Assembly: GCA_964408775.1 (NCBI GenBank)
Contig: CAYPAP010000001.1
Span: 21,404-85,403, forward strand
DNA from: an uncultured Gammaproteobacteria bacterium
Lineage (GTDB): Bacteria; Patescibacteriota; Patescibacteriia; Patescibacteriales; UBA12465
Length of the DNA: 64,000 nucleotides
Reading direction: 5' to 3'
Made by a program: the position numbers and the translations under genes
Notes under the pieces: model-generated
Database searches by the model: none
Told to the model about the DNA's origin: nothing
What the model saw: the letters and a program-made list of their open reading frames with translations, nothing else
Part shown: one piece after another, positions 88 to 39,884 of the stretch
Layout: each line of letters begins with the position of its first letter
Position numbering within the stretch: position 1 is the stretch's first letter

Positions 88-441
88 TTAATCCATTTTT
101 ATCTCTAAGTCAACCCCTGCAGGCAAACTTAGACTAGTAAGATCTTCGATGGTTTTAGCGGACGGTTCAAAAATATCAATTAGCCTCTTGTGAGTTCTAA
201 TCTCATATTGGTCTCGGGCATTTTTATGAACAAAAGTAGAACGGTTGACAGTATACTTCCTTTTTTCAATTGGAAGTGGAACTGGACCAGAAATCTGAGC
301 ATCATTTCTTTGAGCTGTTTCCATTATAGTCTTAGCGGCCTGATCAATAATCTTATGATCAAAAGACTTAATTTTAATTCTAATTTTACTCTTGAAATCT
401 CCGCTATCATTCTTAACGGATTTGTTTTTACTTTCAGCCAT
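88..441 (-). CDS. rpsJ: 30S ribosomal protein S10
   Basis: 117 aa; 'IRIKIKSFDHKIID...ISGPVPLP...RSTFVHKNARDQYEIRTHKRLIDI' is the S10 signature; lies distal in the str operon. Confidence 0.9.
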   Translation of the reverse strand: MAESKNKSVKNDSGDFKSKIRIKIKSFDHKIIDQAAKTIMETAQRNDAQISGPVPLPIEKRKYTVNRSTFVHKNARDQYEIRTHKRLIDIFEPSAKTIEDLTSLSLPAGVDLEIKMD

Positions 442-527
442 ACGTTAATTGATAAAATATCTCTTAATGAGAATTAATTTTTAAATAAACATTATAAGCT
501 CGCTAATTAATTAGCGAGCTTAAATAT

Positions 528-1757
<1,230 letters not shown>

Positions 1758-1864
1758 AAAGGCAACCAGCCGTTTAAATTAATTATAAATAAACTTATAA
1801 ACAACTAAAAATAGCTAAATCATTAACTATTTTTATTTTTTAATTAAACTCAATTAAAATAATC

Positions 1865-2158
1865 CTATTCTTCTGATTCCTGCTTAATCTGTGGCGGAAT
1901 TTGCCAATTATTGTTTCTAAAATTACGGTTAGAAGAATTATTTTGTTCATTGTTTTCCGTGCTTCCTATTTTATCAATTATTTTTTTTTCTGTCAAGGGC
2001 TGAACCTCTTCTTTTTTTAGGTCTTTTTCTATTAAATTCTCATACTGATCTAAGGTCATAACAACGAAGGAATTTTCGGGCTCGCTATTGTCAAAAACTA
2101 TAATTCGGTCGCCAGTTTTTTTGGATAAATTTATAACTTGTTTTAATTGCTTAGACAT
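1865..2158 (-). CDS. Small hypothetical protein, N-terminal half Phd/YefM antitoxin-like; inserted between tuf and fusA
   Basis: 97 aa; 'RIIVFDNSEPENSFVVMTLDQYENLIE' resembles the YefM core '[25 protein letters not shown]'; C-terminal N/Q-rich tail; no toxin partner ORF adjacent. Confidence 0.35.
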   Translation of the reverse strand: MSKQLKQVINLSKKTGDRIIVFDNSEPENSFVVMTLDQYENLIEKDLKKEEVQPLTEKKIIDKIGSTENNEQNNSSNRNFRNNNWQIPPQIKQESEE

Positions 2159-2228
2159 ATAAAAATAAGATTAAATTATAAATTAAAAAACGACTTTTGA
2201 TTATAGCATATTAATTTAAAAAGGCAAG

Positions 2229-3368
2229 CTAATGCACATCCAATACAAGATTTTGAAGCATCTCCTCTACAGATGGCTCAGAACCATCAACAATATAAAT
2301 ACGAGGGTCAAAAAATTGGAGTCTAGGAGTAGAAATAGTTGAATAATAATGATAAGTGCGATGTATTGTATAATTATTATCAGCTTTCCACTTAAAATCA
2401 TTAGCGGCAAAAACCTTATTACCATCAACATCATAAACACCAGAATCAACGCTCGCTACTGTGGCAGCAGTGTTATGAGGATGAGTATGGCCAACTATTA
2501 AGTACCATTTATCTTTATCAAAGTCGCTTATATTTCTATAAAAGAAATAGGGATTGGTATTTGAAGCGCCAGTAGTTAAAATAAAAACACCGGTATTAGT
2601 GCTACCCGAATAACCCCTTAAGCCAAGGTAGACTCTCCCGCTAGAATCAACCGATGTTTTTTTAAACCAAACAGAAAAACGATACATTTTTGTGCTATCA
2701 ATAGGCATGTCGGTATAAACGCTATTCCAGCCACCATCAGCGTTATTATCACCAACGGGGCGAGTTTCCCAAACAACACTTTCTTGACCAAAGGGGTTTG
2801 TTCCTAAAACCCTTTCATTTTCAGAGGTTAACCCATTTTGTGTAAAACTAAAAGAGCCTCCATATGTAGTTTTAGAAAGAGTCCCACTGCCGACTGCCCA
2901 ATTAGAGGAGTCAAATACAGGACTCGTAGGACTGCTGATGCCAGCGGGGGTAACCTTTTTTAAACCAGCTGTGTAATTTTCTACTTTTTCTGCAAGACAA
3001 AAATACATAAAATAACTATCCCCATCATCGGAGGAGGAATAGTTATAACTGCTATCCCCGCAAGTCATATCAGTATCATTAAGATTGCTTGGGACTTGCG
3101 ACATAAAAGTAACACCAGTAGAACTGCCTATTAGGGATTGGCCGGAGACTATAGAATCTGGGTAAGTGCCCTCTACCCTTTTATAATTCTCTAAAGCAAT
3201 CTGTATCTGATTAATATTATTTATTTTTTTAATTTCCCTTCCTTTTTGACGAGAATTGGATATAGATAAAAAAACCGTAGTTGCTATTAATGTTATTATA
3301 AAAATTACTCCTAAGAGTTCAATTAACGTAAAAGCCTTCCTTTGATAAAAAATCTTTTTAATACCCAT
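2229..3368 (-). CDS. Type IV pilin-like (prepilin-type N-terminal cleavage/methylation) protein with large C-terminal domain
   Basis: 379 aa; basic leader MGIKKIFYQRKA followed by FTLIELLGVIFIITLIA (class III signal, E at +5); ~300 aa beta-rich C-terminal domain of unknown function. Confidence 0.7.
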   Translation of the reverse strand: MGIKKIFYQRKAFTLIELLGVIFIITLIATTVFLSISNSRQKGREIKKINNINQIQIALENYKRVEGTYPDSIVSGQSLIGSSTGVTFMSQVPSNLNDTDMTCGDSSYNYSSSDDGDSYFMYFCLAEKVENYTAGLKKVTPAGISSPTSPVFDSSNWAVGSGTLSKTTYGGSFSFTQNGLTSENERVLGTNPFGQESVVWETRPVGDNNADGGWNSVYTDMPIDSTKMYRFSVWFKKTSVDSSGRVYLGLRGYSGSTNTGVFILTTGASNTNPYFFYRNISDFDKDKWYLIVGHTHPHNTAATVASVDSGVYDVDGNKVFAANDFKWKADNNYTIHRTYHYYSTISTPRLQFFDPRIYIVDGSEPSVEEMLQNLVLDVH

Positions 3369-3489
3369 ATTTTTACTTATAATAAAAATATAAAACTAAT
3401 AATATAATAACATATTAGCATAAAAAAATATTTTCAACAATAAAAATAAGGGGCAAGAATCCCCTTATTTTTCGTACTATATTTTAAAA

Positions 3490-5571
3490 TTATTTTTTTC
3501 CGCTTTTCTCCCTAATTTGCTCTAGTATATTCCTTGGTACTTCATTGTAATGAGAAAACTCCATCACATAATTAGCTCGGCCTTGGCTCATGGAACGAAG
3601 TGAAGTAGCATAACCAAACATCTCAGCCAGTGGAACCTTGGATAAAACAACCTTAGCATTACCCCTTTCAGTCATTTCTTCAATTTGACCTCTCTTAGCA
3701 TTTAAATCACCAATAATACTGCCCATATATTCCTCGGGAGTAGTAACCTCAACTTTCATAACTGGTTCTAACATAATAGGAGTTCCCTTCTGACAAGCTT
3801 CTTTAAAGGCAAAAATAGCCGCCATTTTAAAGGCAATTTCAGAAGAATCAACCTCATGGTAAGATCCGTCATACACAGTGGTTTTAACATCCACCATTGG
3901 ATAACCAGCCAAAATACCACTTTGCATTGCCTCTTTAACTCCCTTTTCTACGGCTGGAATATATTCACGAGGGATAGCACCACCTTTAACCTCATCAACA
4001 AATTCGTAACCCTTACCAGCTTCTTGTGGCTCAACTCGTAAATAACAGTGTCCATATTGACCACGACCACCGGACTGTTTGGCATATTTATGTTCAGCTT
4101 CTGATTTTTGTTTAATAGTTTCACGATAAGAAACCTGGGGATTCCCAACATTAGCATCAACGCTAAACTCTCTTCGCATTCTATCAACGATAATATCTAA
4201 ATGTAATTCCCCCATACCTGAAATTAAAACCTGCCCAGTCTCCTCGTCACTCTCTACTCTAAAAGTAGGATCTTCTTCAGCTAGACGACTCAAGGCAATG
4301 CCCATTTTTTCTTGGTCGGCCTTGGTCTTTGGCTCTACGGCAATTTTAATAACTGGCTCTGGAAAAATAATTGATTCTAATAGTATTGGCCTTTTTTCGT
4401 CACATAAAGTATTTCCAGTAGTAGTATCTTTTAGTCCGATAACGGCAGCAATATCCCCAGCTTTAATTTCTTTAATTTCTTCACGATGGTTAGCATGCAT
4501 ACGAACTAAACGCCCCACTCTTTCTTTATTTCCAGTAGAAGAGTTAATAATATAAGAACCGGAACTTAGAACTCCGCTATATACACGGACAAAACAAAGT
4601 TTACCAACAAATGGATCAGTAGCAATTTTAAAAGCTAGACCGGCGAATGGTTCTTTTTCATCAGCCTTAATAACTGTTTTTTTGATCTCATCTTTAATAT
4701 CACTTCCTTCAATTTCAGGAACATCTAAAGGAGACGGTAAATATTCGCAAACAGCATCTAAGGCTAATTGAACTCCAATATTTTGCAAAGCTGTTCCACA
4801 CATTACCGGATAAATTTCATTAGCGATAACCCCTTTTCTTAAGGCCTTCTTTAAATCTTCTAAAGAAAGTTCTTCTCCGCCTAAATATTTTTCAGTCAAA
4901 GCATCATCAAATTCGGCTACTTTTTCCACCAAGTCAGCATAATATTTATTTAATTTTTCCTCCATATCAGCTGGAACTGGGATCTCGCTTATTTGCTCAC
5001 CAAAGCTTCCTTCAAATTTATAAGCTTTTTTTGTTAAAATATCAATTACTCCTGAAAAATTATTTTCTGACCCGATTGGTAACTGATAAGCAAAGGCCTT
5101 AGAATTTAATCTTTTCTTGATAGACTCCAAGCTCATATAAAAGTCAGCGCCAGTTTTATCCATTTTATTAATAAAACAAATTCTAGGGACTCGATATTTA
5201 TCAGCTTGACGCCAAACAGTTTCGGATTGAGGCTCTACTCCTTGAGAAGCATCAAAAACAGCAATAGCACCATCTAGAACACGGAGTGATCTTTCCACCT
5301 CTACAGTAAAATCAACGTGACCAGGAGTATCAATAATATTGATTTTGTTTTCTTTCCAATAACAAGTGGTAGCAGCTGAGGTGATAGTAATACCACGCTC
5401 TTTTTCTTGTTCCATCCAGTCCATATCGGCGGCTCCATCATGAGTTTCTCCGATCTTATGCTTTTTACCGGTGTAAAACAAAACTCGCTCAGTAAAAGTT
5501 GTTTTACCAGCGTCAATGTGGGCCATGATTCCGATGTTACGGAATTTATCTAGAGTATAATCTTGTGACAT
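3490..5571 (-). CDS. fusA: Elongation factor G
   Basis: 693 aa; [17 protein letters not shown] and NKMD GTPase motifs; EF-G domain order. Confidence 0.97.
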
Positions 5572-5580
5572 AGTTGTTTA

Positions 5581-5620
5581 ATAGAATCTTTGGGATCTTT
5601 AGAATCTTTGAGATCTTTAG
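5581..5620. repeat. Four tandem ~10-bp direct repeats (RRATCTTTR) upstream of fusA
   Basis: agaatctttg ggatcttta gaatctttga gatctttag; each unit contains a GATC or AATC core; iteron-like. Confidence 0.6.
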
Positions 5621-5648
5621 GATATTTTAATTAATTTATTATTTTTAT

Positions 5649-5890
5649 TTCTAAAAGTTTAAATTTTGTATTCCTAAAAGTTGATATTTTGTGGAAATTT
5701 TTAGGAAAAGGCGAGAAATGAAGCGAGTCTAAAAATTTCCAACCTAATTCTTAAAAGTTTAAATTTTGAGCGAAGTTTTAGGAAAAAGTGAAAAACAATT
5801 TCTAATTAGAAAAATTTAAATTTTAGATGAAGCTTTAGGAAGGGGCGAGAAATGAAGCGAGTCGTATTTTAATACGGCGAGCAAATTTCG
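5649..5890. repeat. Degenerate tandem repeat array (~55-100 bp units) in the rpsG-fusA spacer
   Basis: 'ttctaaaagtttaaattttg' occurs 3 times and 'ttaggaa(a/g)ggcgagaaatgaagcgagtc' twice; GC-rich words in an AT-rich background; rpsG and fusA are normally adjacent. Confidence 0.7.
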
Positions 5891-5931
5891 ATGTCCCTGA
5901 CGACAAGCTTCGCTAAAATTTAGATTTTTCC

Positions 5932-6399
5932 CTACCGGGAGAAATGGGCAAAGGCCTTGTTAGACTCCGCCATTTTATGCACAGTCTCCCTCTTTCTAAC
6001 TGCCGCACCCTCACCATTGGAAGCATCTAAAATTTCAGCGGCTAACTTTTCGGCCATTGATTTTCCCTTTCTAGCCTTAGCTGCATCAATAATCCAATGA
6101 CAACCCAAGTAAAATCTTCTCTCTCCTCTAACTTGAAAAGGAACCTGATAGTTGGCTCCACCAACTCTCTTACCACGAACCTCTAATAAAGGCGAAACCT
6201 TTTTTAGGGCTTTATTAAAAATGTGACGAGGATCATGCTTGGTCTCTTGTCTAATAATATCAAAAGCATCATAAACAATAGATTGGGCAGTTGATCTCTT
6301 GCCGTGAACCATTATATAATTTATAAACTTAGCGATATTTTTATCACCATATTTTAAATCATTTTCTATATCTCTTTTTGGAGCTTGTTTACCTCTCAT
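5932..6399 (-). CDS. rpsG: 30S ribosomal protein S7
   Basis: 155 aa; S7 signature 'KRSTAQSIVYDAFD...VEVRGKRVGGANYQVP'. Confidence 0.93.
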   Translation of the reverse strand: MRGKQAPKRDIENDLKYGDKNIAKFINYIMVHGKRSTAQSIVYDAFDIIRQETKHDPRHIFNKALKKVSPLLEVRGKRVGGANYQVPFQVRGERRFYLGCHWIIDAAKARKGKSMAEKLAAEILDASNGEGAAVRKRETVHKMAESNKAFAHFSR

Positions 6400-8520: not shown

Positions 8521-10008
8521 TTATTTTTTGTATTTTTTCATTAAATAAAATAAAATTAAATAATAAATAATAGATAAATAAATTGACCAATTATTAATAT
8601 TAACAAAAGCTCCTGGAATATTATTAACAGAGCCCCCAACAAATAGAATATATTTGATAATTAAATCGATTAATGAATAAAGCAATTGCCCTAAAAATGG
8701 AATAATAGAAGATAATAAAATCGCTACAATGGAAAGAGAAATAATAAATGGCAATAACCACACCACCAATAAATTACTAATGGGAGCAATTAGGGAAAAT
8801 TGTTTAAAGCTGGAAATTAAAATTGGCCCAGCAATTAATTGAACAGAAATTGTAATACTTAAAATATCGATGATAGCCTCGTTTATCCTTATTATTTTAA
8901 AAATTCTCAAACTTAAAAACTCTTTAACTACGGGGTGTATATAAATTATTCCTAAAACTGCCAAAAAAGATAATTGAAATCCCAAATCACCAAAAAGTAA
9001 TAAGGGATTTAAAAGTAATAAAAAAATTCCGGCAAAAAATAAAACATTAACCAGGTTTCCTGCCCTGCCCATATAAACAGCCAGAAATGATAGAAATCCC
9101 ATTAATGAGGCCCGCGAAGCTGAGGCTGGCGCTCCGATTAAGATTAAATAAAAGGCTAAAAATAAAATACTACCATAAAAAGATTGTCGGCGCGATAGAC
9201 CAGAAAATAATAAAAAGCTTAAAAACAAAGAGCTTAGCAAGCTAATATGCATGCCAGAAATAGCAATAATATGACTAAGTCCGGCCCGAGAAAATTTTTC
9301 TCGTAATTCTAGGGACAGAAAAGTTTTATCCCCCAGAAGCATCGCCCTTAAAATCGCCGAAGACTCTAGGCTTAAATAAAAATCAAATTGATTGGCTACT
9401 TTGGATTTTAAATTATTAATAGCAATGAAAAAATTTTTAGCAAAAAAAGATTTTTCTGGAATGCTTATTTTTTTAATATTGGGATAATAGGATACAGCTG
9501 TTATCCCATATCTCTTTAAATAAAGTCCATAATCGAAATCTTCAATAATTCCAGGTTTCTGCCACTTCCCCGAAACTTGCAAAAAATCTCCCAAATTATA
9601 TCGCGGATATGAAACAGAGCTAACTAAGACCCCCCCTTTTAATTTAAACTTGTTATCAAGCTCATCTAGTCCATAGATTATTTTTATTTTAATTCTTTGT
9701 CTTATGTCATTTGATTCCGGCTCAGAAATAATTTGCCCAACCAAGATTAATTCTTGGTTATTATAATTTTCAATTCTTCCTAAAGTGCTTTCAGGAAATA
9801 TTAATAGATAGCGCCAAATGGCTAAAAATAAAAAGAATAAAATTATTAAAAAAATTTTCTTGAATTTTAATAATAAAAGGAGAGATGAGAAAGTAAAAAT
9901 AAAAAATAAGAAAGCGGAAAAATTTCTTAGGAAATAAAAATAATGAGCCAAAAATAAACCGACCACAAAGGATGAGGCTGATATTAACCAAAAATGTTTT
10001 TTAAACAT
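8521..10008 (-). CDS. comEC: ComEC/Rec2-family DNA internalization channel (competence domain only)
   Basis: 495 aa polytopic membrane protein; 'LRAMLLGDKTFLSLELREKFSRAGLSHIIAISGMHISLL' matches the ComEC motif; no C-terminal metallo-beta-lactamase domain. Confidence 0.75.
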   Translation of the reverse strand: MFKKHFWLISASSFVVGLFLAHYFYFLRNFSAFLFFIFTFSSLLLLLKFKKIFLIILFFLFLAIWRYLLIFPESTLGRIENYNNQELILVGQIISEPESNDIRQRIKIKIIYGLDELDNKFKLKGGVLVSSVSYPRYNLGDFLQVSGKWQKPGIIEDFDYGLYLKRYGITAVSYYPNIKKISIPEKSFFAKNFFIAINNLKSKVANQFDFYLSLESSAILRAMLLGDKTFLSLELREKFSRAGLSHIIAISGMHISLLSSLFLSFLLFSGLSRRQSFYGSILFLAFYLILIGAPASASRASLMGFLSFLAVYMGRAGNLVNVLFFAGIFLLLLNPLLLFGDLGFQLSFLAVLGIIYIHPVVKEFLSLRIFKIIRINEAIIDILSITISVQLIAGPILISSFKQFSLIAPISNLLVVWLLPFIISLSIVAILLSSIIPFLGQLLYSLIDLIIKYILFVGGSVNNIPGAFVNINNWSIYLSIIYYLILFYLMKKYKK

Positions 10009-10115: not shown

Positions 10116-11180
10116 TTAATTTTTAATACAGCGCACAGCATAACCGCTCGCACGAGCATTAGTTCCGGCATAAGCTTCAACACCGCCAAAGAAAAAAAGA
10201 CGCGCATAACCACTTTCTATATTACTGGACCAATAATAGCCATAAAGTCCAGCATTATAAAGAGATCCACCAAAGCCACGATTTCCATTTAAGGTTAATT
10301 TTAAAGACGAGGCAAAAGCTCCAGCTGAATCACTTGAACTCCAAGTTGCCATTTCGGCAGTCCACTCTGCTTCGGTTGGTATTCTAAAGCTGTCTGGACA
10401 GGGATTATTAATTCCATCCAATCCTTGCCATAAATTATTGTTAGAAGGGTTTCGCCAATCGTAAGGATCAGCTGCGGAAATAATAAAATTAGCGTGACCC
10501 GGGGTATCGGAGGTGGCCAATGTCGCTGTCGTGGCCGAGGTTCTGATTTGATGACCATCGTCTAATCTCCCCCACTGGAAAAGGTCGCCATAAGCGTTAG
10601 TGTCAGTAGATGAAATAGCTACCTGGGAAGCTCCAAGGTTGCGATCCAACCAGCATTCGCCAGTAACAGGGTTTAATGCCGTCCCATAAGTTACAGGAGA
10701 TCCGTTATATGTAAAACTCACATTATAACCACCACATTGAGGAGTGCTTATCCCGTTAGGGCTGGCTATTTTTAATCCAGCTGATAAATCAGAAATATTA
10801 CCTCCAACACAAAAACCTATAGTATAAGTTGAGCCATCAGCAGAGGTGTAAGTATAAGCATTATCGCTCTCTTCACAATCTCCGTCTGCTGGAGTAGGGG
10901 CTAAGGGAACTCTGGCCATATAGGTTGATCCTCCGGTAGCTATAGCTGTGTCTATTTCTCCAGTTAAAGGATATACTCCGGTGTCATTATAATATAGCTC
11001 TAGTGCTGTTTGCATCTGCCTGACATCAGCGATTCTTTTGGCGTCTCGAGCATTCTTCCTGGCATTTTGTAGGGACACTACGGCCAGAGTTGATAAAATA
11101 CCTATTATGGCTATCACTACTAACAGTTCAATTAGAGTAAAAGCCGGCTTGGTGGATTTATTATTCTTTATTTTAAACAT
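10116..11180 (-). CDS. Type IV pilin-like N-terminus fused to a Fibrobacter-succinogenes-major-paralogous-like C-terminal domain
   Basis: 354 aa; leader MFKIKNNKSTKPA + FTLIELLVVIAIIGILSTLAV; C-terminus 'FQWGRLDDGH...YGYYWSSN...SGYAVRCIKN' resembles the TIGR02145 Fib_succ_major ending '...GFSVRCVKD'. Confidence 0.6.
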   Translation of the reverse strand: MFKIKNNKSTKPAFTLIELLVVIAIIGILSTLAVVSLQNARKNARDAKRIADVRQMQTALELYYNDTGVYPLTGEIDTAIATGGSTYMARVPLAPTPADGDCEESDNAYTYTSADGSTYTIGFCVGGNISDLSAGLKIASPNGISTPQCGGYNVSFTYNGSPVTYGTALNPVTGECWLDRNLGASQVAISSTDTNAYGDLFQWGRLDDGHQIRTSATTATLATSDTPGHANFIISAADPYDWRNPSNNNLWQGLDGINNPCPDSFRIPTEAEWTAEMATWSSSDSAGAFASSLKLTLNGNRGFGGSLYNAGLYGYYWSSNIESGYARLFFFGGVEAYAGTNARASGYAVRCIKN

Positions 11181-23625: not shown

Positions 23626-25689
23626 TTAATTTCCTATTTCAACAAATTCTACTACTACTCCCCCTTTGTATTCATCTTCTAGCCCATAAAATGAAGCCAT
23701 CAATTCGCCCTTACTATTGAAAGCTCTAACATGGGGGGTCCCCCCTGGTCCAGCACCAGCTATTATTTCATCTAATCCGTCCTTGTCTAAGTCACCCAAA
23801 GCCAAATTAACCCCTCCTTTAAATTTTTCTGCATAGGCTAAGAAGCTTTTAATTTTTTCACCGGAATTATTAAAAACCACAATTTCTGGTTTACGACCTG
23901 GTCCTGGAGAAATAACTATATCAGTTTTTCCTCTGCTATCCTTACCATAGACATTCCCCAGTCGAATTCTAGCTCCACCGAAAAAATCTTCTTCATAAGC
24001 AAAAAAATGACTTGTGAGCTTCCCTTGACCATTAAAAATTTTAACATGAGATCCCCCTTTAGAAAATGGGACCACCGCAATTTCGCTTTTTCCATCTCCA
24101 TCAATATCACCCACTGAAATACTAACTCCTCCGGTAAAATTTTCGTTATAAGCAAAAAATTGACCTTTTAATTTTCCTTGTTGATCAAAAATTCTAATAT
24201 GTGGTCCTCCTCCTGGTCCCGCAGCGGTAACAATCTCGTTTTTACCATCACCATCAACATCTCCCACTGCTACATTAACCCCGCCCCTAAATTTGGGATC
24301 ATAGGCGAAAAATTGTCCCTTAATATTACCAGAATTATCAAAAATTCTAACATGTGGACCACCTCCTAATCCCGCCCCGGTTATTATTTCTGAGGTGCCA
24401 TCTTTATCCAGGTCTGCTACAACCATATTTATGCTACCATTAAACTTTGGATCATAAGCAAAAAAACGACTTTCCTCTTCACCCTTACTGCTAGTGACTC
24501 TGACTGAGTTAAACATCTCCAACTCGTCTTTAAAATCTATAATATCAACCTGAGGAAAAAGCAAGAATCGCCCGGTAAGATTTTCCCATTTTTCCAAAGC
24601 CCAATTAACAGAGCTGGCTAAATTAACCCTTCCACTGCCAAGCTCATTAAGGTTTTCTGGATTTAAGGAATTAATATCATCTGAACTCCTAATTAATATA
24701 TCCAAAACCTGCTTATTGCTTAATTTCGGATTAGCCTCTTTAATAAGAGCCAATGATCCGCTAACAACTGCTGCGGACATGGAGGTACCAGACCAATAAC
24801 CATTGTAATAACTATTTTTTTTATCTTCGGTATCATAAAAAGATGACGAAAAAAAACTTATTCCTGGAGCGGAAATATCTACACAGTTTTTACCATAGGA
24901 AGAAAAAAACGCCTTCTGATCTAAAGTATCAGTTGCTCCAACAGAAATAATAATATTATTGTTATTAGATCCACCGAAACAAGCTGGATAAAGAGGTTCT
25001 TGATCTAAGTCAGAATTATTATTACCAGCAGCTGCAACAACAAGAATACCAGCTCGATAAGCCCTTTCAACAGCCTCTTCAAACCCCTGATTATATCCTA
25101 GCCCCGAAAAACTAAGGTTGATTATATCAGCTCCATTGTTAATAGCATAATCTATAGCCCTGACCACATCATTAATTTTGCCCTCACCACCTTCGTCTAG
25201 AGCTTTAAGCGGCATTATCTTCACATTAGAGGCAATACCACTTATTCCTATAGAATTATTAGTCTTGGCCCCAATAATTCCAGCTATCATAGTCCCGTGG
25301 TTCAAACCATCGTCGCTCCCTCCAAGGTCAAGTCTAGGGCGAGGATCTGGAACATTGTTAACAAAATCCCACCCATTTACATCGTCGATAAATCCGTTGC
25401 CATCATCGTCTTTGCCATTTTCAAAAATCTCAAATTTATTGCGCCAAATATTATCTCTTAAATCGGGATGGTCAATATAAATTCCAGAATCAATCACAGC
25501 CACAATAACATTTTTACCAATAAAATTTTTATTCCATATAGAGCTAAATCCAATACGGCTTAAATACCACTGATTATTAAAATAAGGATCGTTCGGTAAT
25601 TGCCCAAAATAAGCCCGAGAAGGAGGGATTAAAAAAGCAAAACTCACCAATAAAAAAAATGCTAAAATTATAATTACTCTTATTTTCAT
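23626..25689 (-). CDS. Secreted subtilisin-like serine protease (S8) with C-terminal FG-GAP/beta-propeller repeats
   Basis: Start set at 'MKIRVIIILAFFLLVSFAFL' signal peptide (the ORF-track N-extension overlaps rplY); catalytic triad context VAVIDSGI (Asp), HGTMIAG (His), GTSMSAAVVSG (Ser); five repeats of 'FFAYDPKF.GG...GD.DGDG..EI.TGAGPGGGPHVRIF'. Confidence 0.85.
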   Translation of the reverse strand: MKIRVIIILAFFLLVSFAFLIPPSRAYFGQLPNDPYFNNQWYLSRIGFSSIWNKNFIGKNVIVAVIDSGIYIDHPDLRDNIWRNKFEIFENGKDDDGNGFIDDVNGWDFVNNVPDPRPRLDLGGSDDGLNHGTMIAGIIGAKTNNSIGISGIASNVKIMPLKALDEGGEGKINDVVRAIDYAINNGADIINLSFSGLGYNQGFEEAVERAYRAGILVVAAAGNNNSDLDQEPLYPACFGGSNNNNIIISVGATDTLDQKAFFSSYGKNCVDISAPGISFFSSSFYDTEDKKNSYYNGYWSGTSMSAAVVSGSLALIKEANPKLSNKQVLDILIRSSDDINSLNPENLNELGSGRVNLASSVNWALEKWENLTGRFLLFPQVDIIDFKDELEMFNSVRVTSSKGEEESRFFAYDPKFNGSINMVVADLDKDGTSEIITGAGLGGGPHVRIFDNSGNIKGQFFAYDPKFRGGVNVAVGDVDGDGKNEIVTAAGPGGGPHIRIFDQQGKLKGQFFAYNENFTGGVSISVGDIDGDGKSEIAVVPFSKGGSHVKIFNGQGKLTSHFFAYEEDFFGGARIRLGNVYGKDSRGKTDIVISPGPGRKPEIVVFNNSGEKIKSFLAYAEKFKGGVNLALGDLDKDGLDEIIAGAGPGGTPHVRAFNSKGELMASFYGLEDEYKGGVVVEFVEIGN

Positions 25690-25735
25690 ATTAGTAAATT
25701 TTAGCATATTTTTTAGAAAAACAAAAATTGTAAAA

Positions 25736-26389
25736 CTAGCTTTTATTCTCTCCTGTTTTGTCACTTTTTGATTTGTCATCCTTGGCTTCGCTAGCTTCGT
25801 CACCGCTAGTTGCCTCTGGAACATCGGTTTTAGGAAGCTCTTCTTTTTCTTTTTTAGGCTCAACCACAGAAACAACAGCATCATCCGGATTATTTAAAAC
25901 TTTTAGATCGCTACTAACTTTAATATCTTTCACTAAAATAATATCACCGAAGGAAAGAAGAGATGAAATGTCCACATCAATATGGTCTACCAAGTCTTTT
26001 GGCAAGCACTCAACCTCTATAGAATCAATATTTTTCATTAATAAAGCACCTAGCTCCTTCACTGCCCGAGATTCGCCAACAAAGCTTAGTGGAATTTCAG
26101 CGGTTACCTTTTTACTCATATCAACCTGGTAAAAATCAACATGACTAAAAAAATCTTTGATCGGGTCTCTCTGAAAATCCTTAATTAGAACTGGAATCTT
26201 GCCAGATCCATCAATCTCTAATTCTATTAAATTAGATTCACCAGCCTCATCATAAACCTTGGTAAAATCATTGGTTTTAATCTTTATTAAAACATTTTCC
26301 GACCCTGGACCATAGATTATTCCAGGAAAAAAATCTTTGTTTAATTTTTCTTTTTTACTTCTAATTTCAGCTTTTAACTTAATGTTCAT
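25736..26389 (-). CDS. rplY: 50S ribosomal protein L25 / general stress protein Ctc
   Basis: 217 aa; L25 N-domain plus Ctc-type C-domain, ending in an acidic/Lys-rich low-complexity tail. Confidence 0.75.
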   Translation of the reverse strand: MNIKLKAEIRSKKEKLNKDFFPGIIYGPGSENVLIKIKTNDFTKVYDEAGESNLIELEIDGSGKIPVLIKDFQRDPIKDFFSHVDFYQVDMSKKVTAEIPLSFVGESRAVKELGALLMKNIDSIEVECLPKDLVDHIDVDISSLLSFGDIILVKDIKVSSDLKVLNNPDDAVVSVVEPKKEKEELPKTDVPEATSGDEASEAKDDKSKSDKTGENKS

Positions 26390-37149: not shown

Positions 37150-38883
37150 TTAAACTAAGTTAATTTTGTCTTTTTTCTTTTTGCTATATTTGGTATGAAG
37201 AACTCTATGATCCTGACTATTATTTTTTAACCATTTAACCACTTCTACGGCCCCCTTATTATCATGGGCTGTTCTTATTTTAATCTTTTTATCCCCTTGA
37301 TACAACCCGGCCGTTCTTTTTGATACAATTTCCATAGAACTAGGTATGGGTTGACCACCGCCACCAATACAACCACCTGGGCAAGCCATCACTTCAATAT
37401 AATCATATTTAGACAAATTGTCCAGCACTCCCTTAATATTACCTATACCATTAACTACTGCTACATTTAATTTTTTACCGGATAAATCAATTTTAGCCTC
37501 TTTTACACCCTCTAAGCCACGCACCTCTTTAAATTCTAGTCTAGAACGACATATTTTAGCTTTTTTAGGGTCACAGATAACATGATGCGCCGTCCTAAGA
37601 GCTGACTCCATAACACCGCCACTAGCCCCATAAATAATTCCGGCCCCACTGCCGTCATTTATTAAATCATTAGATTTTTCTGGTCTTAATTTCTTAAAGT
37701 CAATATTGTTCTTCTTTATCATAAAAGCTAACTCTCTGACCGTTAAAACCTTATCCACCGGTTTTAACTTACCAATTTTAAGCTCAGGCCGAGAAATTTC
37801 AAACTTCTTAGCCGTGCAAGGCATAATAGAAACAATAACAATATCCTCGGGTTTAATTTTTTTCTTTTTAGCCCAGTAGGTTTTAATAATTCCACCTAGA
37901 TGAATTTGCGGCGAACGAGAGCTTGTGAGATGCGGAATTAAATCAGGCCTATAAAACTCTAAGTATTTAACCCAAGCTGGACAACAAGAAGTCATTAAAG
38001 GTAACCCAGCCTTTTTATCATTCAATCTTTCTAATAATTCCTCGGCCTCAACTAAAGTAGTTACATCGGCGCCAAAAACCACATCCATAACCTGGTCAAA
38101 TCCTAATTTCTTTAAGGCTGCTACCATTTTTCCACTATTATTTTGCCCGTAAGGCAGGCCGAACTCCTCTCCAATAGAAACCCTGGTTGAAGGAGCAATC
38201 ATGGCTATTAAAGTTTTCTTACCTTTTTTAGCTAAAATGTCTTCCACTTCCCCCCAATTATATTGCTCCTGAGCTGAGGCCACTGGACAATGGAGAGCAC
38301 ATTGCCCACAATAAATACAATCGATATTGGGGTCTTGAGTAGGCACTATTTCCTGCGCAGCTCCCTTCCCTTTTATTTCTAAGTAATTTATTTTTTGAAT
38401 ATCAGAGCAAGCATCCACACAATTACGACAATCTATACACTGAGACCCATCAATTTCCACGGCATTAGCAAATTTATATGTTTTACGTTTTACTTTTCTG
38501 TCTTGAAAATTAGTAACTTTCAAATCATACTTTTTTGCTAGGTTTAATAAATCACAATTATATTTTAAAGTGCAACCAAAACATTTCTCAGTATGTTCGG
38601 CAAAAATTAATTTCAAATTAGTGTTACGAGCTTTTTTAACTTTAGGCGAATTTGTAAATATTTCTATTCCATTCTCGGCTAAAACTGAACAAGAGGTCAT
38701 TAATTTATCACAATCCTTCACCTCAACCACACAAACACGACAATTAGCCTTAATTTTTAGGTCTGGGTGATAACATAAAGAAGGAATAAATATTTTATTA
38801 TTCCGAGCTATTTCCAAGATAGTCTGACCTAAATAGCCCTGACATTTTTTACCATCTATTTTTATTTCTATTTTTTTTGGCAT
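37150..38883 (-). CDS. hydA: [FeFe]-hydrogenase catalytic subunit HydA (M3, CpI-like)
   Basis: 577 aa; N-terminal 2Fe-2S ferredoxin-like domain; 4Fe-4S motifs CIDCRNCVDAC and CIYCGQCALHCP; H-cluster motifs L1 'TSCCPAWV', L2 'MPCTAKKFE', L3 'ACPGGCIGGGGQP'. Confidence 0.9.
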   Translation of the reverse strand: MPKKIEIKIDGKKCQGYLGQTILEIARNNKIFIPSLCYHPDLKIKANCRVCVVEVKDCDKLMTSCSVLAENGIEIFTNSPKVKKARNTNLKLIFAEHTEKCFGCTLKYNCDLLNLAKKYDLKVTNFQDRKVKRKTYKFANAVEIDGSQCIDCRNCVDACSDIQKINYLEIKGKGAAQEIVPTQDPNIDCIYCGQCALHCPVASAQEQYNWGEVEDILAKKGKKTLIAMIAPSTRVSIGEEFGLPYGQNNSGKMVAALKKLGFDQVMDVVFGADVTTLVEAEELLERLNDKKAGLPLMTSCCPAWVKYLEFYRPDLIPHLTSSRSPQIHLGGIIKTYWAKKKKIKPEDIVIVSIMPCTAKKFEISRPELKIGKLKPVDKVLTVRELAFMIKKNNIDFKKLRPEKSNDLINDGSGAGIIYGASGGVMESALRTAHHVICDPKKAKICRSRLEFKEVRGLEGVKEAKIDLSGKKLNVAVVNGIGNIKGVLDNLSKYDYIEVMACPGGCIGGGGQPIPSSMEIVSKRTAGLYQGDKKIKIRTAHDNKGAVEVVKWLKNNSQDHRVLHTKYSKKKKDKINLV

Positions 38884-39884
38884 AAATTTGGATAAACATT
38901 TTTAAAATAACTTAAAATAGCGATAGGAGCACAGGCCCCCAAGGCGCAAAAAGAAGATGTTTCTAAATTTTTACATAAATCAACAAAATCACTAACATCT
39001 TTTAAATATGAACGTTTATTTTTAAATAACTCTAATAAACGATAAGTGCCCTCGCGGCAAGGAGTGCATTGACCGCAAGAATTATCGGCGAAAAAACTCA
39101 ACCAATAATTAACCAGCTTTTCAGGTCGATGATTAGAAAGTTTATAAATAGTGATAGACCCGGCACCGGGAACTTTTCTTCTTAATTGTTTCTGATTAAA
39201 TACTTCCCCGCTAGCATCTCCGCCCACTTGAACAAAAAAATCGTATTTAGGATAGTTTTTAGTTTTGATTAAAACATCTTTAATACTTAAATCATCTGGC
39301 AAACTATAAACACCCTTGTTTTTATTTTCTATATTAATAGAATAAAATCTCTCACCAGAAAATTTATTTATACTAACTAAATAAACGTCATATAAGGTCT
39401 CAATATTATTAATCAAAGTCGGTTGGCCAAAAAGTCCCTTTTCGGTTGGAAATGGGGGGCGTAATCGAGGTTCGGCTCTCCCGCCTTCAATGATATTTAA
39501 AATAGTACTTTCCTCCCCACCAATATATCCAGCCCCTTTTGGTTTTTTGATTATTTCAAATTTCCCCTTTAAACCAGCCTTATTAAATTCTTTTATTATC
39601 TTGTTCTTATAAATATCATAATATTTACCATTGAGATAAAAATAAATTTTGGTAGCCTTAATGGTGTCGGAGGCGATCTTAACACCAATAGAAAATTCTT
39701 TTAATAAATTTTTAATAATATAACCATCCTTATAAATACCAGGTTCTCCCTCGGCTCCATTTATTATTAAATATTTAGTTTTGCTTTTAGCCTTGGCTAC
39801 GGATTGCCACTTAATATGAGTTGGGAAACCAGCCCCACCTCGGCCAAGCAAACAAGCTTTTTCTATTTTTTTTATTATCGACAT
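38868..39884 (-). CDS. NuoF-like (51-kDa/HydB-type) NAD(P)H-binding flavoprotein, minimal form
   Basis: 338 aa; 'GRGGAGFPTHIKW' FMN/NADH motif very near the N-terminus; C-terminal 4Fe-4S motif 'SCGQCTPCREG'; overlaps the hydA start by 16 nt (operonic). Confidence 0.75.
   Translation of the reverse strand: MSIIKKIEKACLLGRGGAGFPTHIKWQSVAKAKSKTKYLIINGAEGEPGIYKDGYIIKNLLKEFSIGVKIASDTIKATKIYFYLNGKYYDIYKNKIIKEFNKAGLKGKFEIIKKPKGAGYIGGEESTILNIIEGGRAEPRLRPPFPTEKGLFGQPTLINNIETLYDVYLVSINKFSGERFYSINIENKNKGVYSLPDDLSIKDVLIKTKNYPKYDFFVQVGGDASGEVFNQKQLRRKVPGAGSITIYKLSNHRPEKLVNYWLSFFADNSCGQCTPCREGTYRLLELFKNKRSYLKDVSDFVDLCKNLETSSFCALGACAPIAILSYFKNVYPNLCQKK

Follow-up and report, generated by a model that had tools for sequence, protein, structure and literature searches.

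How does a str operon come to hold two additional genes and a long non-coding spacer, and were these acquired recently or inherited with the rest of the locus? The question is raised by a 64,000-nucleotide (nt) stretch of a Patescibacteria contig (CAYPAP010000001.1, positions 21,404 to 85,403; the whole stretch is hereafter the window). On its minus strand an open reading frame (ORF) listing, Pfam matches and direct reading place, in this order, rpsL, rpsG, a spacer, fusA (coding for elongation factor EF-G), a gene for a pilin-like protein, a gene for a 97-residue (aa) protein (the small gene and the small protein), tuf (EF-Tu) and rpsJ. The initial annotation is borne out, by ORFs and Pfam, as to the presence of the 97- and 379-aa genes between tuf and fusA and of a 360-nt spacer between rpsG and fusA, but not as to the two genes being insertions into the operon, since relatives present the same gene order. 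The short gaps without internal terminators that mark a str operon transcribed as a single unit are not found here: the window departs from them by a structured spacer of 360 nt, two additional genes, two promoter-like sites and, behind fusA, a hairpin resembling a terminator. We regard it as probable that the str operon of this lineage consists of several separate units, with a layout (small gene, pilin slot and spacer) that has been inherited and not recently disrupted.

Patescibacteria account for a large share of bacterial diversity, and their tiny genomes are rich in unannotated genes. The window locus, with a GC content of about 30-40%, is present on seven metagenome contigs. In a scan with one genome per species, the nearest relatives of its EF-G were found in genomes of the Patescibacteria, or candidate phyla radiation (CPR), with identities of 89% to DAONEH01, 77-80% to three metagenome-assembled genomes (MAGs) and about 66-74% to MAGs of the Parcubacteria, Magasanikbacteria and Falkowbacteria type. 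A further metagenome scan with the 97-aa protein as query yielded 13 more loci. We define as the near clade those loci whose EF-G is 86-98% identical to that of the window (11 species sampled: the window, L094/95, L096, L097, L098, L099, L100, L102, L103/104, L105, L106 and L108).

The small gene before tuf

On the sequence comparisons made here, the small gene is the local member of a large, uncharacterised family that is found only in the CPR and is linked to tuf. A word search recovered 62 close homologues and 429 in a wider set (90%-identity clusters), and a search of 1.84 billion representatives yielded 987 representatives of 50%-identity clusters at E<=1e-10 and 1777 at E<=1e-3. All named members belong to the Patescibacteria and are labelled either "hypothetical protein" or, automatically, "PHD/YefM". 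The family matched no NCBIfam model, a profile search against Protein Data Bank sequences returned no relative (only a chance-level match to Bep, E=0.048), and literature searches yielded nothing relevant, for Patescibacteria, on either a tuf leader or an antitoxin-like gene linked to tuf.

Homologues were identified between fusA and tuf by tblastn and ORF extraction in L005, L006, L007, L011, L013, L014, L017, L034, L058, L061 and L070. Moreover, a hidden Markov model (HMM) of the family, run on all fetched loci, places the gene directly upstream of tuf, on the same strand and 67-277 nt away, in every locus that holds both. The adjacency was repeated in exact-protein look-ups for diverse members (P0091, P0063, P0122, P0002, P0011, P0100, P0067, P0078 and P0098), and it extends over some 30 distinct lineages, including those in which fusA lies elsewhere. 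In L091 the upstream genes are unrelated to fusA and the small gene still precedes tuf, so the linkage is to tuf; its presence before tuf in every locus holding both therefore points to an ancestral position and not to a recent insertion. The family HMM matched no non-CPR locus, nor any of about 15 CPR loci from other lineages. A small gene fixed before the single EF-Tu gene over about 1000 clusters is a rare and strong positional clue for an unannotated CPR gene. In a related vein, five MAGs titled "uncultured Gammaproteobacteria bacterium" (L006, L011, L070, L008 and L015) present str regions of CPR type, with EF-G 66-80% identical to that of the window, and the CPR-only small gene is present in L006, L011 and L070 and not in L008 and L015; all five are probably mislabelled bins.

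Family members consist of an N-terminal domain of about 45 aa, a divergent Phd/YefM-like alpha-beta-beta-alpha unit, followed by a conserved helix (LTExELLDKINRDIAxWK, the LT...KIN core of which occurs in 203 of 262 members), an acidic, disordered linker with 29% aspartate plus glutamate, and C-terminal motifs of the WxIP (WxIPxxxK; 159 of 262 members) and EEDRYYFEPVE-like types. The subclade of the window has a shortened C-terminus that keeps NWQIPPQIK and has lost the last motif, and its helix is degraded. It seems reasonable to postulate that the small protein may be a dimeric nucleic-acid-binding or adaptor protein acting on expression of tuf and the S10 operon, or on EF-Tu itself.

The interval around the small gene carries further signals. 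In most lineages a sigma70-type promoter is predicted 30-45 nt upstream of the small gene (TTGACA...TATAAT in L098, L102, L103, L106, L088, L011, L014, L017 and L091), and many show a further promoter-like site before tuf. The AU-rich hairpin that follows the small gene in the window appears, on reading of the sequences, to be kept in near-clade loci with G-U and compensatory variation. Inside the 97-aa ORF, at 1968-1996 on the minus strand and about 250 nt upstream of tuf, lies another promoter-like sequence close to consensus (TTGACA-17-TAAAAT with TG, 11/12), which overlaps the conserved Leu-Thr-Glu codons (TTG ACA GAA). No Shine-Dalgarno sequence was recognisable before fusA, the pilin gene, the small gene or tuf, all of which are preceded instead by A/U-rich tracts.

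A leader RNA motif of three helices is found 9-30 nt before the start codon of tuf, in the interval that separates tuf from the small gene. Its 15 pairs, aligned over 15 sequences, are 92% paired, and eight of them show compensatory changes, a covariation score reached by none of 500 shuffles and far above that of slid controls. The corresponding covariance model, R2, matches 22 loci, five of them outside its training set, as well as L111, with one match per locus and always between the small gene and tuf (L005:6108-6158, L006:9437-9490, L007:11163-11217, L088:5508-5570, L111:2998-3065 and others); no CPR locus without the small gene was matched. No family of Rfam 15 matched the leader, for which only chance-level matches (E 0.14-9) were obtained. 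The EF-Tu sequence itself varies along with these elements: at residue 322 (window positions ~750-752), which presumably adjoins the kirromycin-resistance position G316 at the interface of domains 1 and 3, the near-universal GGRHTPFF is replaced by GGRHKPFF in 26 of the 29 distinct EF-Tu sequences that come from loci with the family, and in none of 32 others. The three exceptions come from loci with divergent short family members, which also have no leader. Such co-variation of the Thr-to-Lys change with the small gene and leader would fit co-adaptation and could equally reflect shared ancestry, and is only a lead.

We tentatively propose, as a possibility worth pursuing, that the small protein and the leader RNA form a previously undescribed, Patescibacteria-specific module controlling EF-Tu. 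The N-terminal domain would bind tuf promoter DNA or the leader RNA, the tail, acidic and with the aromatic motifs WxIP / YYFEPVE, would bind either EF-Tu or the ribosome, and the two bindings together would establish a feedback loop on the most abundant protein of the cell. Since small protein, leader RNA and EF-Tu are all small and expressible, the proposal is testable in vitro. Several points weigh against the wider reading of the locus. Loci fetched by means of the family protein contain the family by construction, so that only the tuf adjacency is independent in them, and the unbiased, fusA-based sample amounts to 12 family-positive loci. The function of the family is deduced from position only, and the copy in the window has no C-terminal YYFEPVE motif. 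All promoters and terminators are sequence predictions, and promoter-like matches numbered 28 against 26 expected, AT-rich genomes giving many by chance.

The coordinates of the features are collected in Table 1. The start of tuf had been placed at a TTG at 1757; the ATG at 1715, which matches the relatives, is most likely the correct one. The palindrome between tuf and rpsJ is terminator-like on both strands, yet poor in T-run. Further ribosomal protein genes downstream of rpsJ are visible in locus L001. Elsewhere in the window, and unrelated to the str locus, are a [FeFe]-hydrogenase large subunit with a Nuo51-like partner (37150-39884) and a 752-aa subtilase with FG-GAP repeats (23626-25884), noteworthy in a CPR genome as metabolic and surface functions.

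Table 1. Genes and sequence features of the str locus in the window
Feature	Coordinates	Strand	Basis or remark
rpsL (ribosomal protein S12), 139 aa	6889..6470	minus	Pfam Ribosom_S12_S23, E=4.5e-37; 139-aa call taken from identical metagenome contigs
rpsG (ribosomal protein S7)	6399..5932	minus	Pfam Ribosomal_S7, E=5.9e-57
Non-coding rpsG-fusA spacer, 360 nt	5931..5572	minus	
Imperfect hairpin, ~125 nt, beginning right after the rpsG stop codon	5807..5930	minus	Covariation
Two degenerate tandem copies of the hairpin 3' half	5806..5742 and 5729..5665	minus	62-74% identity
9-nt periodic repeat (CTAAAGATC-like) directly before the fusA ATG	5582..5627	minus	TRF, period 9, 5.1 copies
fusA (EF-G), 693 aa	5571..3490	minus	Pfam GTP_EFTU, EFG_III, EFG_IV, EFG_C
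Terminator-like hairpin (UAAGGGG...CCCCUUA) and U-run after fusA	3440..3465	minus	Terminator scan
Promoter-like TTGTTG-N17-(TGc)TAATAT before the pilin-like gene	3412..3440	minus	Read from sequence; prediction
Pilin-like ORF, 379 aa	3368..2229	minus	
Promoter-like TTGCCT-16-(TG)TATAAT before the small gene	2227..2200	minus	Promoter scan, 10/12 with TG; conserved in the near clade
Small ORF, 97 aa	2158..1865	minus	
AU-rich hairpin (AAAAUAGUUAA/UUAGCUAUUUU) and U-run after the small gene	1834..1807	minus	Read from sequence; weak terminator candidate
tuf-leader RNA motif, 5'-CGGC UGG [P2] (A)AAC [P3] GCCG-3', three helices	1775..1725	minus	Covariation
tuf (EF-Tu), 395 aa from the ATG at 1715	1715..528	minus	Pfam; start placed by relatives
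Perfect 12-bp palindromic hairpin (TAAGCTCGCTAATTAATTAGCGAGCTTA) between tuf and rpsJ	495..522	both	Terminator scan
rpsJ (S10), first gene of the S10 operon	441..88	minus	Pfam Ribosomal_S10

The spacer between rpsG and fusA

The spacer begins with a long imperfect hairpin that folds alike in the five distinct orthologous spacers on which its covariation rests and which represent two subclades, a small basis that also counts against the wider reading. Of its 45 pairs, 13 show compensatory changes and 95.6% of the alignment cells are paired; no shuffle out of 500 reached this covariation and slid controls gave at most three. Several G-U pairs fit the mRNA-sense strand, and the spacer RNA of the window folds better than shuffled versions of itself (z = -3.4). 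The covariance model of the hairpin, R1, finds it at this locus only, in the 64-kb window and in about 820 kb of related loci, and none of the 4227 families of Rfam 15 matched it at gathering score or at E<=1. An Rfam scan of the whole window at gathering score gave nothing meaningful, and a tRNA/tmRNA scan found none.

The direct repeats noted previously in this spacer are real and non-random. There are three copies of about 65 nt and four of 27 nt, and the 20-mer GACTCGCTTCATTTCTCGCC, of which 0 copies are expected by chance, is present twice in the spacer and absent from the rest of the 64 kb. The repeats correspond to the 3' half of the hairpin present three times in tandem, at 5863..5799 and in the two degenerate copies of Table 1, and the number of units differs among the window, L094, L098 and L103. 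Every relative with a long spacer retains a similar periodic CT.AAAG pattern directly before fusA. The mini-ORFs said to occur twice stand in one instance, ATG AAG CGA GTC TAA at 5718-5732; the second differs, reading ATG AAG CGA GTC GTA TTT TAA at 5853-5873. As genes they were rejected, being antisense to the operon, four and six codons long, non-identical and explained by the duplicated hairpin arm. A decayed gene was likewise discarded, given the absence of tblastn similarity to the genes found between rpsG and fusA in other lineages and the abundance of stops in all six frames. In other CPR lineages the interval holds a Flavin_Reduct gene (L088:2533-2826, L090:294-845), a 67-aa ORF (L107:1920-2405) or a Cys-rich 52-aa ORF (L034:7696-8001), and gaps of 0.5-0.8 kb occur in L024, L033 and L042.

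Within the near clade, long spacers (276-360 nt) are present in the window, L094, L098, L103, L104 and L106, and short ones (22-30 AT-rich nt) in L097, L100, L102, L105 and L108. In neighbour-joining trees of fusA and of EF-G plus EF-Tu, the long spacer occurs in two subclades, the sister of each of which has the short form, a patchy distribution that implies several losses or transfer. Our best guess is that the hairpin may serve as an intercistronic element of mRNA processing, stability or attenuation that would uncouple fusA from rpsL-rpsG. Less likely, though a serious alternative, is that the spacer is instead a selfish or neutral palindromic repeat, of the type of miniature inverted-repeat transposable elements (MITE) or repetitive extragenic palindromes (REP), which arrived between the genes, grows and shrinks by slippage and is devoid of any role in expression. 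Presence/absence polymorphism among close relatives in two separate subclades, variation in unit number with partial duplications of either arm, and the long inverted-repeat architecture all speak for such an element. However, R1 locates no other copy in the window or in the ~820 kb of related loci, which weakens the notion of a dispersed element, and there is no terminal duplication at the boundaries. In addition, the element always starts exactly at the rpsG stop codon, and neither the 13 compensatory pairs across species nor the sense-strand fit of the G-U pairs favours a neutral repeat. With the tuf leader, the hairpin makes two covarying RNA structures at a single locus that are candidate cis-regulatory elements, of which almost none are known in the phylum. 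These two candidate RNA motifs and the tuf-linked protein family are the most valuable products of the analysis.

The slot between fusA and the small gene

The product of the 379-aa ORF clears the gathering cut-off of the N_methyl model PF07963 by a narrow margin (21.6 against 21.2 bits). Its N-terminus, RKA/FTLIELL, carries the class III signal and N-methylation motif with the expected Glu at +5; the position at -1, for which Gly is expected, is occupied by Ala in the window (KAFTLIELL) and by Ala or Gly in relatives (for example NQGFTLIELL in L094). The AlphaFold2 (AF2) model comprises a long helix (residues 15-66) and a beta-sandwich (150-375) with per-residue confidence (pLDDT) above 90, a jelly-roll of the carbohydrate-binding module (CBM)/ConA-like type that resembles CBM4/22/16 and MAM domains (Foldseek E~3e-5) and is 40-47% identical to a domain found in many LamG, Gly_rich_2 and type IX secretion system (T9SS)-tail proteins. 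No pilus assembly genes were found among the ten large window ORFs scanned. A second pilin-like gene of the window, coding for 354 aa at 10116-11180 on the minus strand (N_methyl 29 bits; Fib_succ_major 30.9 bits, just under cut-off), shares 39% identity with the N-module of the pilin between fusA and tuf and adjoins a ComEC/DUF4131 competence-channel gene (8521-10008).

In all 11 near-clade species the interval from fusA to the small gene holds one to three pilin-like genes. Their products open with the motif (K/G/A)(A/G)FT(L/F)xE, have the first ~145 residues in common and score 22-33 bits against PF07963. Their C-terminal domains are of several kinds: Fib_succ_major in L094, L097, L100, L102 and L105, with He_PIG joined to it in L105; Laminin_G_3 in L098, L103 and L106; and Flg_new with Gly_rich_2 in L102. 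In L096 the slot contains a 1241-aa Flg_new_2 repeat protein. Since all 11 near-clade species have the pilin block and distant relatives are without it, the block appears to be ancestral at about the genus level. Among the more distant relatives the slot is empty in L006, L070, L011, L013, L014 and L034; that of L007 holds a 217-aa protein and those of L110, L112, L113, L017 and L109 other cargo. As observed across these six cargo-bearing lineages, the content comprises the 217-aa protein, stretches of 2.7-4 kb with assorted ORFs, a 138-aa gene on the opposite strand and a set of three small genes. Such unrelated cargo implies that the slot is permissive well beyond the pilin-carrying clade, and the suggestion of a tolerated integration hotspot is thus upheld for the junction of fusA and the small gene, which may hold pilins, the 1241-aa repeat protein, small genes or nothing.

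We infer that the slot pilins may be diversifying tip or minor adhesin pilins, expressed from their own promoter and directed to host-cell glycans. If so, the slot would illustrate how episymbionts may diversify the adhesins with which they bind their hosts, the pilin module staying constant and its lectin domain being exchanged at one chromosomal site. The site itself is best viewed as a permissive slot and not as a device for expressing pilins together with translation factors. Co-regulation of this kind had been raised by the initial annotation, and the pilin gene might indeed be placed for co-transcription with fusA and tuf, read-through giving high, growth-coupled pilin expression. The pilin genes lie on the same strand, tightly packed between two very highly expressed genes in 11/11 near-clade species, and intrinsic terminators are often leaky. 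Nevertheless, we consider this unlikely, since the sequence signals point the other way: a good GC-rich stem with a U-run, species-specific in sequence, follows fusA at the same place in all 11 near-clade loci, an extended -10 motif (TTTTTATGyTATAAT) is conserved before the first pilin gene in all of them, and the small gene has its own predicted promoter after the pilin.

Improbable, too, is the view that the pilin-like and Phd/YefM-like genes are recent, horizontally acquired and lineage-specific insertions that disrupted a contiguous str operon. It draws on the fact that in most bacteria, and in several of the CPR lineages sampled, fusA and tuf are 90-200 nt apart with nothing between them, on dips of GC content at the gene boundaries and on the difference in slot cargo between species. 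Against it, the small gene occupies the same place in ~30 lineages, with EF-G down to ~60% identical to that of the window, and none of the 11 near-clade species is without the pilin block; for the small gene, insertion is already largely refuted. The case also carries a caveat for genome scans, as what looks like the interruption of a conserved operon can be ancient and shared by a whole lineage, with no insertion event behind it.

The Phd/YefM-like domain and comparison with known systems

The small protein matches the PhdYeFM model PF02604 with E=9e-6 and 25.8 bits, below the Pfam gathering cut-off of 29.8, and matches at E<=0.01 recur in 37 of 53 family members (best E 1.1e-6); the NCBIfam model phd_fam reaches only E>=0.07. 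The PF02604 alignment begins at model position 11, leaving unmatched the N-terminal segment of YefM that comprises beta1 and the DNA contacts. In structure searches the best specific Foldseek matches are YefM, Phd and RelJ, with weak significance, and superpositions give root mean square deviations of 2.6 A over 51 columns (3d55_B) and 2.2 A over 45 columns (3oei_N). Three results count against this likeness: the AF2 model (alpha-beta-beta-alpha followed by disorder, where the dimerisation/DNA-binding fold of Phd/YefM is beta-alpha-alpha-beta-beta-alpha) has a low mean pLDDT of 68, the top specific match, YefM 7v6w_D, has a Foldseek probability of 0.77 with E=0.5, and hhalign against verified YefM sequences gives a probability of 38% over 19 columns, covering the strand-helix "VVMSLxEYExL" alone. 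As modelled, the small protein may be called Phd/YefM-like in fold, and because the hhalign result is weak we do not file it as a member of the family. The Phd/YefM label proposed earlier therefore holds in that a similarity exists, and fails in that it is weak and below the Pfam threshold.

The accompanying statement that the gene has no toxin partner stands: no toxin-like ORF lies beside it on either strand in the window, no toxin gene is adjacent in any of ~30 lineages, and in every locus examined tuf is next, with no Doc/YoeB/RelE-type toxin and no other ORF of at least 50 aa downstream. That the protein should be a genuine type II antitoxin, orphaned or with its toxin in trans and placed before tuf incidentally or by hitch-hiking, is highly improbable, for although its PF02604 matches are weak yet recurrent, some sources label relatives "PHD/YefM family antitoxin", its disordered tail is antitoxin-like and Doc, the partner of Phd, phosphorylates EF-Tu (a suggestive coincidence only), the toxin is consistently absent with tuf always next, the YefM DNA-contact segment is unmatched, and toxin-antitoxin modules are mobile and patchy whereas the small gene is fixed in position and vertically conserved over ~1000 50%-identity clusters.

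The small protein resembles the Phd/YefM antitoxins (PF02604; E. coli YefM 2A6Q, M. tuberculosis YefM 3D55 and phage P1 Phd) in being short, in having at its N-terminus an alpha/beta domain that bears the "...VVMSLxEYExL" strand-helix signature, in ending in a disordered tail with short conserved motifs, and in the first position of its gene in a two-gene arrangement. Unlike them, it has no N-terminal beta1/helix segment carrying the invariant S/A-R-Q of YefM, its downstream partner is always tuf and never a toxin, its gene is positionally fixed and vertically inherited instead of mobile, and it has, in addition, a conserved helix and an acidic tail that carries aromatic motifs.

The E. coli str operon consists of rpsL-rpsG-fusA-tufA with translational feedback by S7. 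The window has these four core genes too, in unchanged order and with the S10 operon after them, but, judging from its signals, the unit is divided at three points: by the hairpin behind rpsG, by the terminator that follows fusA, and ahead of tuf by the promoter, the small gene and the leader. It also contains extra genes, and tuf appears to be joined to the S10 side. Long hairpins are known as intercistronic processing sites of the RNase III type, as in the rplL-rpoB spacer and phage T7 R1.1. Like these, and like the ribosomal protein leaders of Rfam, the covarying structures described here lie between or before translation genes; in contrast, the spacer hairpin is confined to two subclades and matches no Rfam family, and its role is predicted.

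Finally, lectin-like minor pilins with large accessory domains have been implicated in host binding in the Saccharibacteria (PMC11623550). Like PilX1 and PilX2 of TM7x (PMC11623550), the pilin of the window belongs to a CPR organism and combines a type IV pilin helix with a large C-terminal domain predicted to bind glycans. Unlike them, it has Ala in place of Gly at -1 before FTLIE, its role in a pilus is a prediction, and its gene lies between fusA and tuf instead of in a pilus-assembly locus, at a fixed site where the C-terminal domains are swapped between species.

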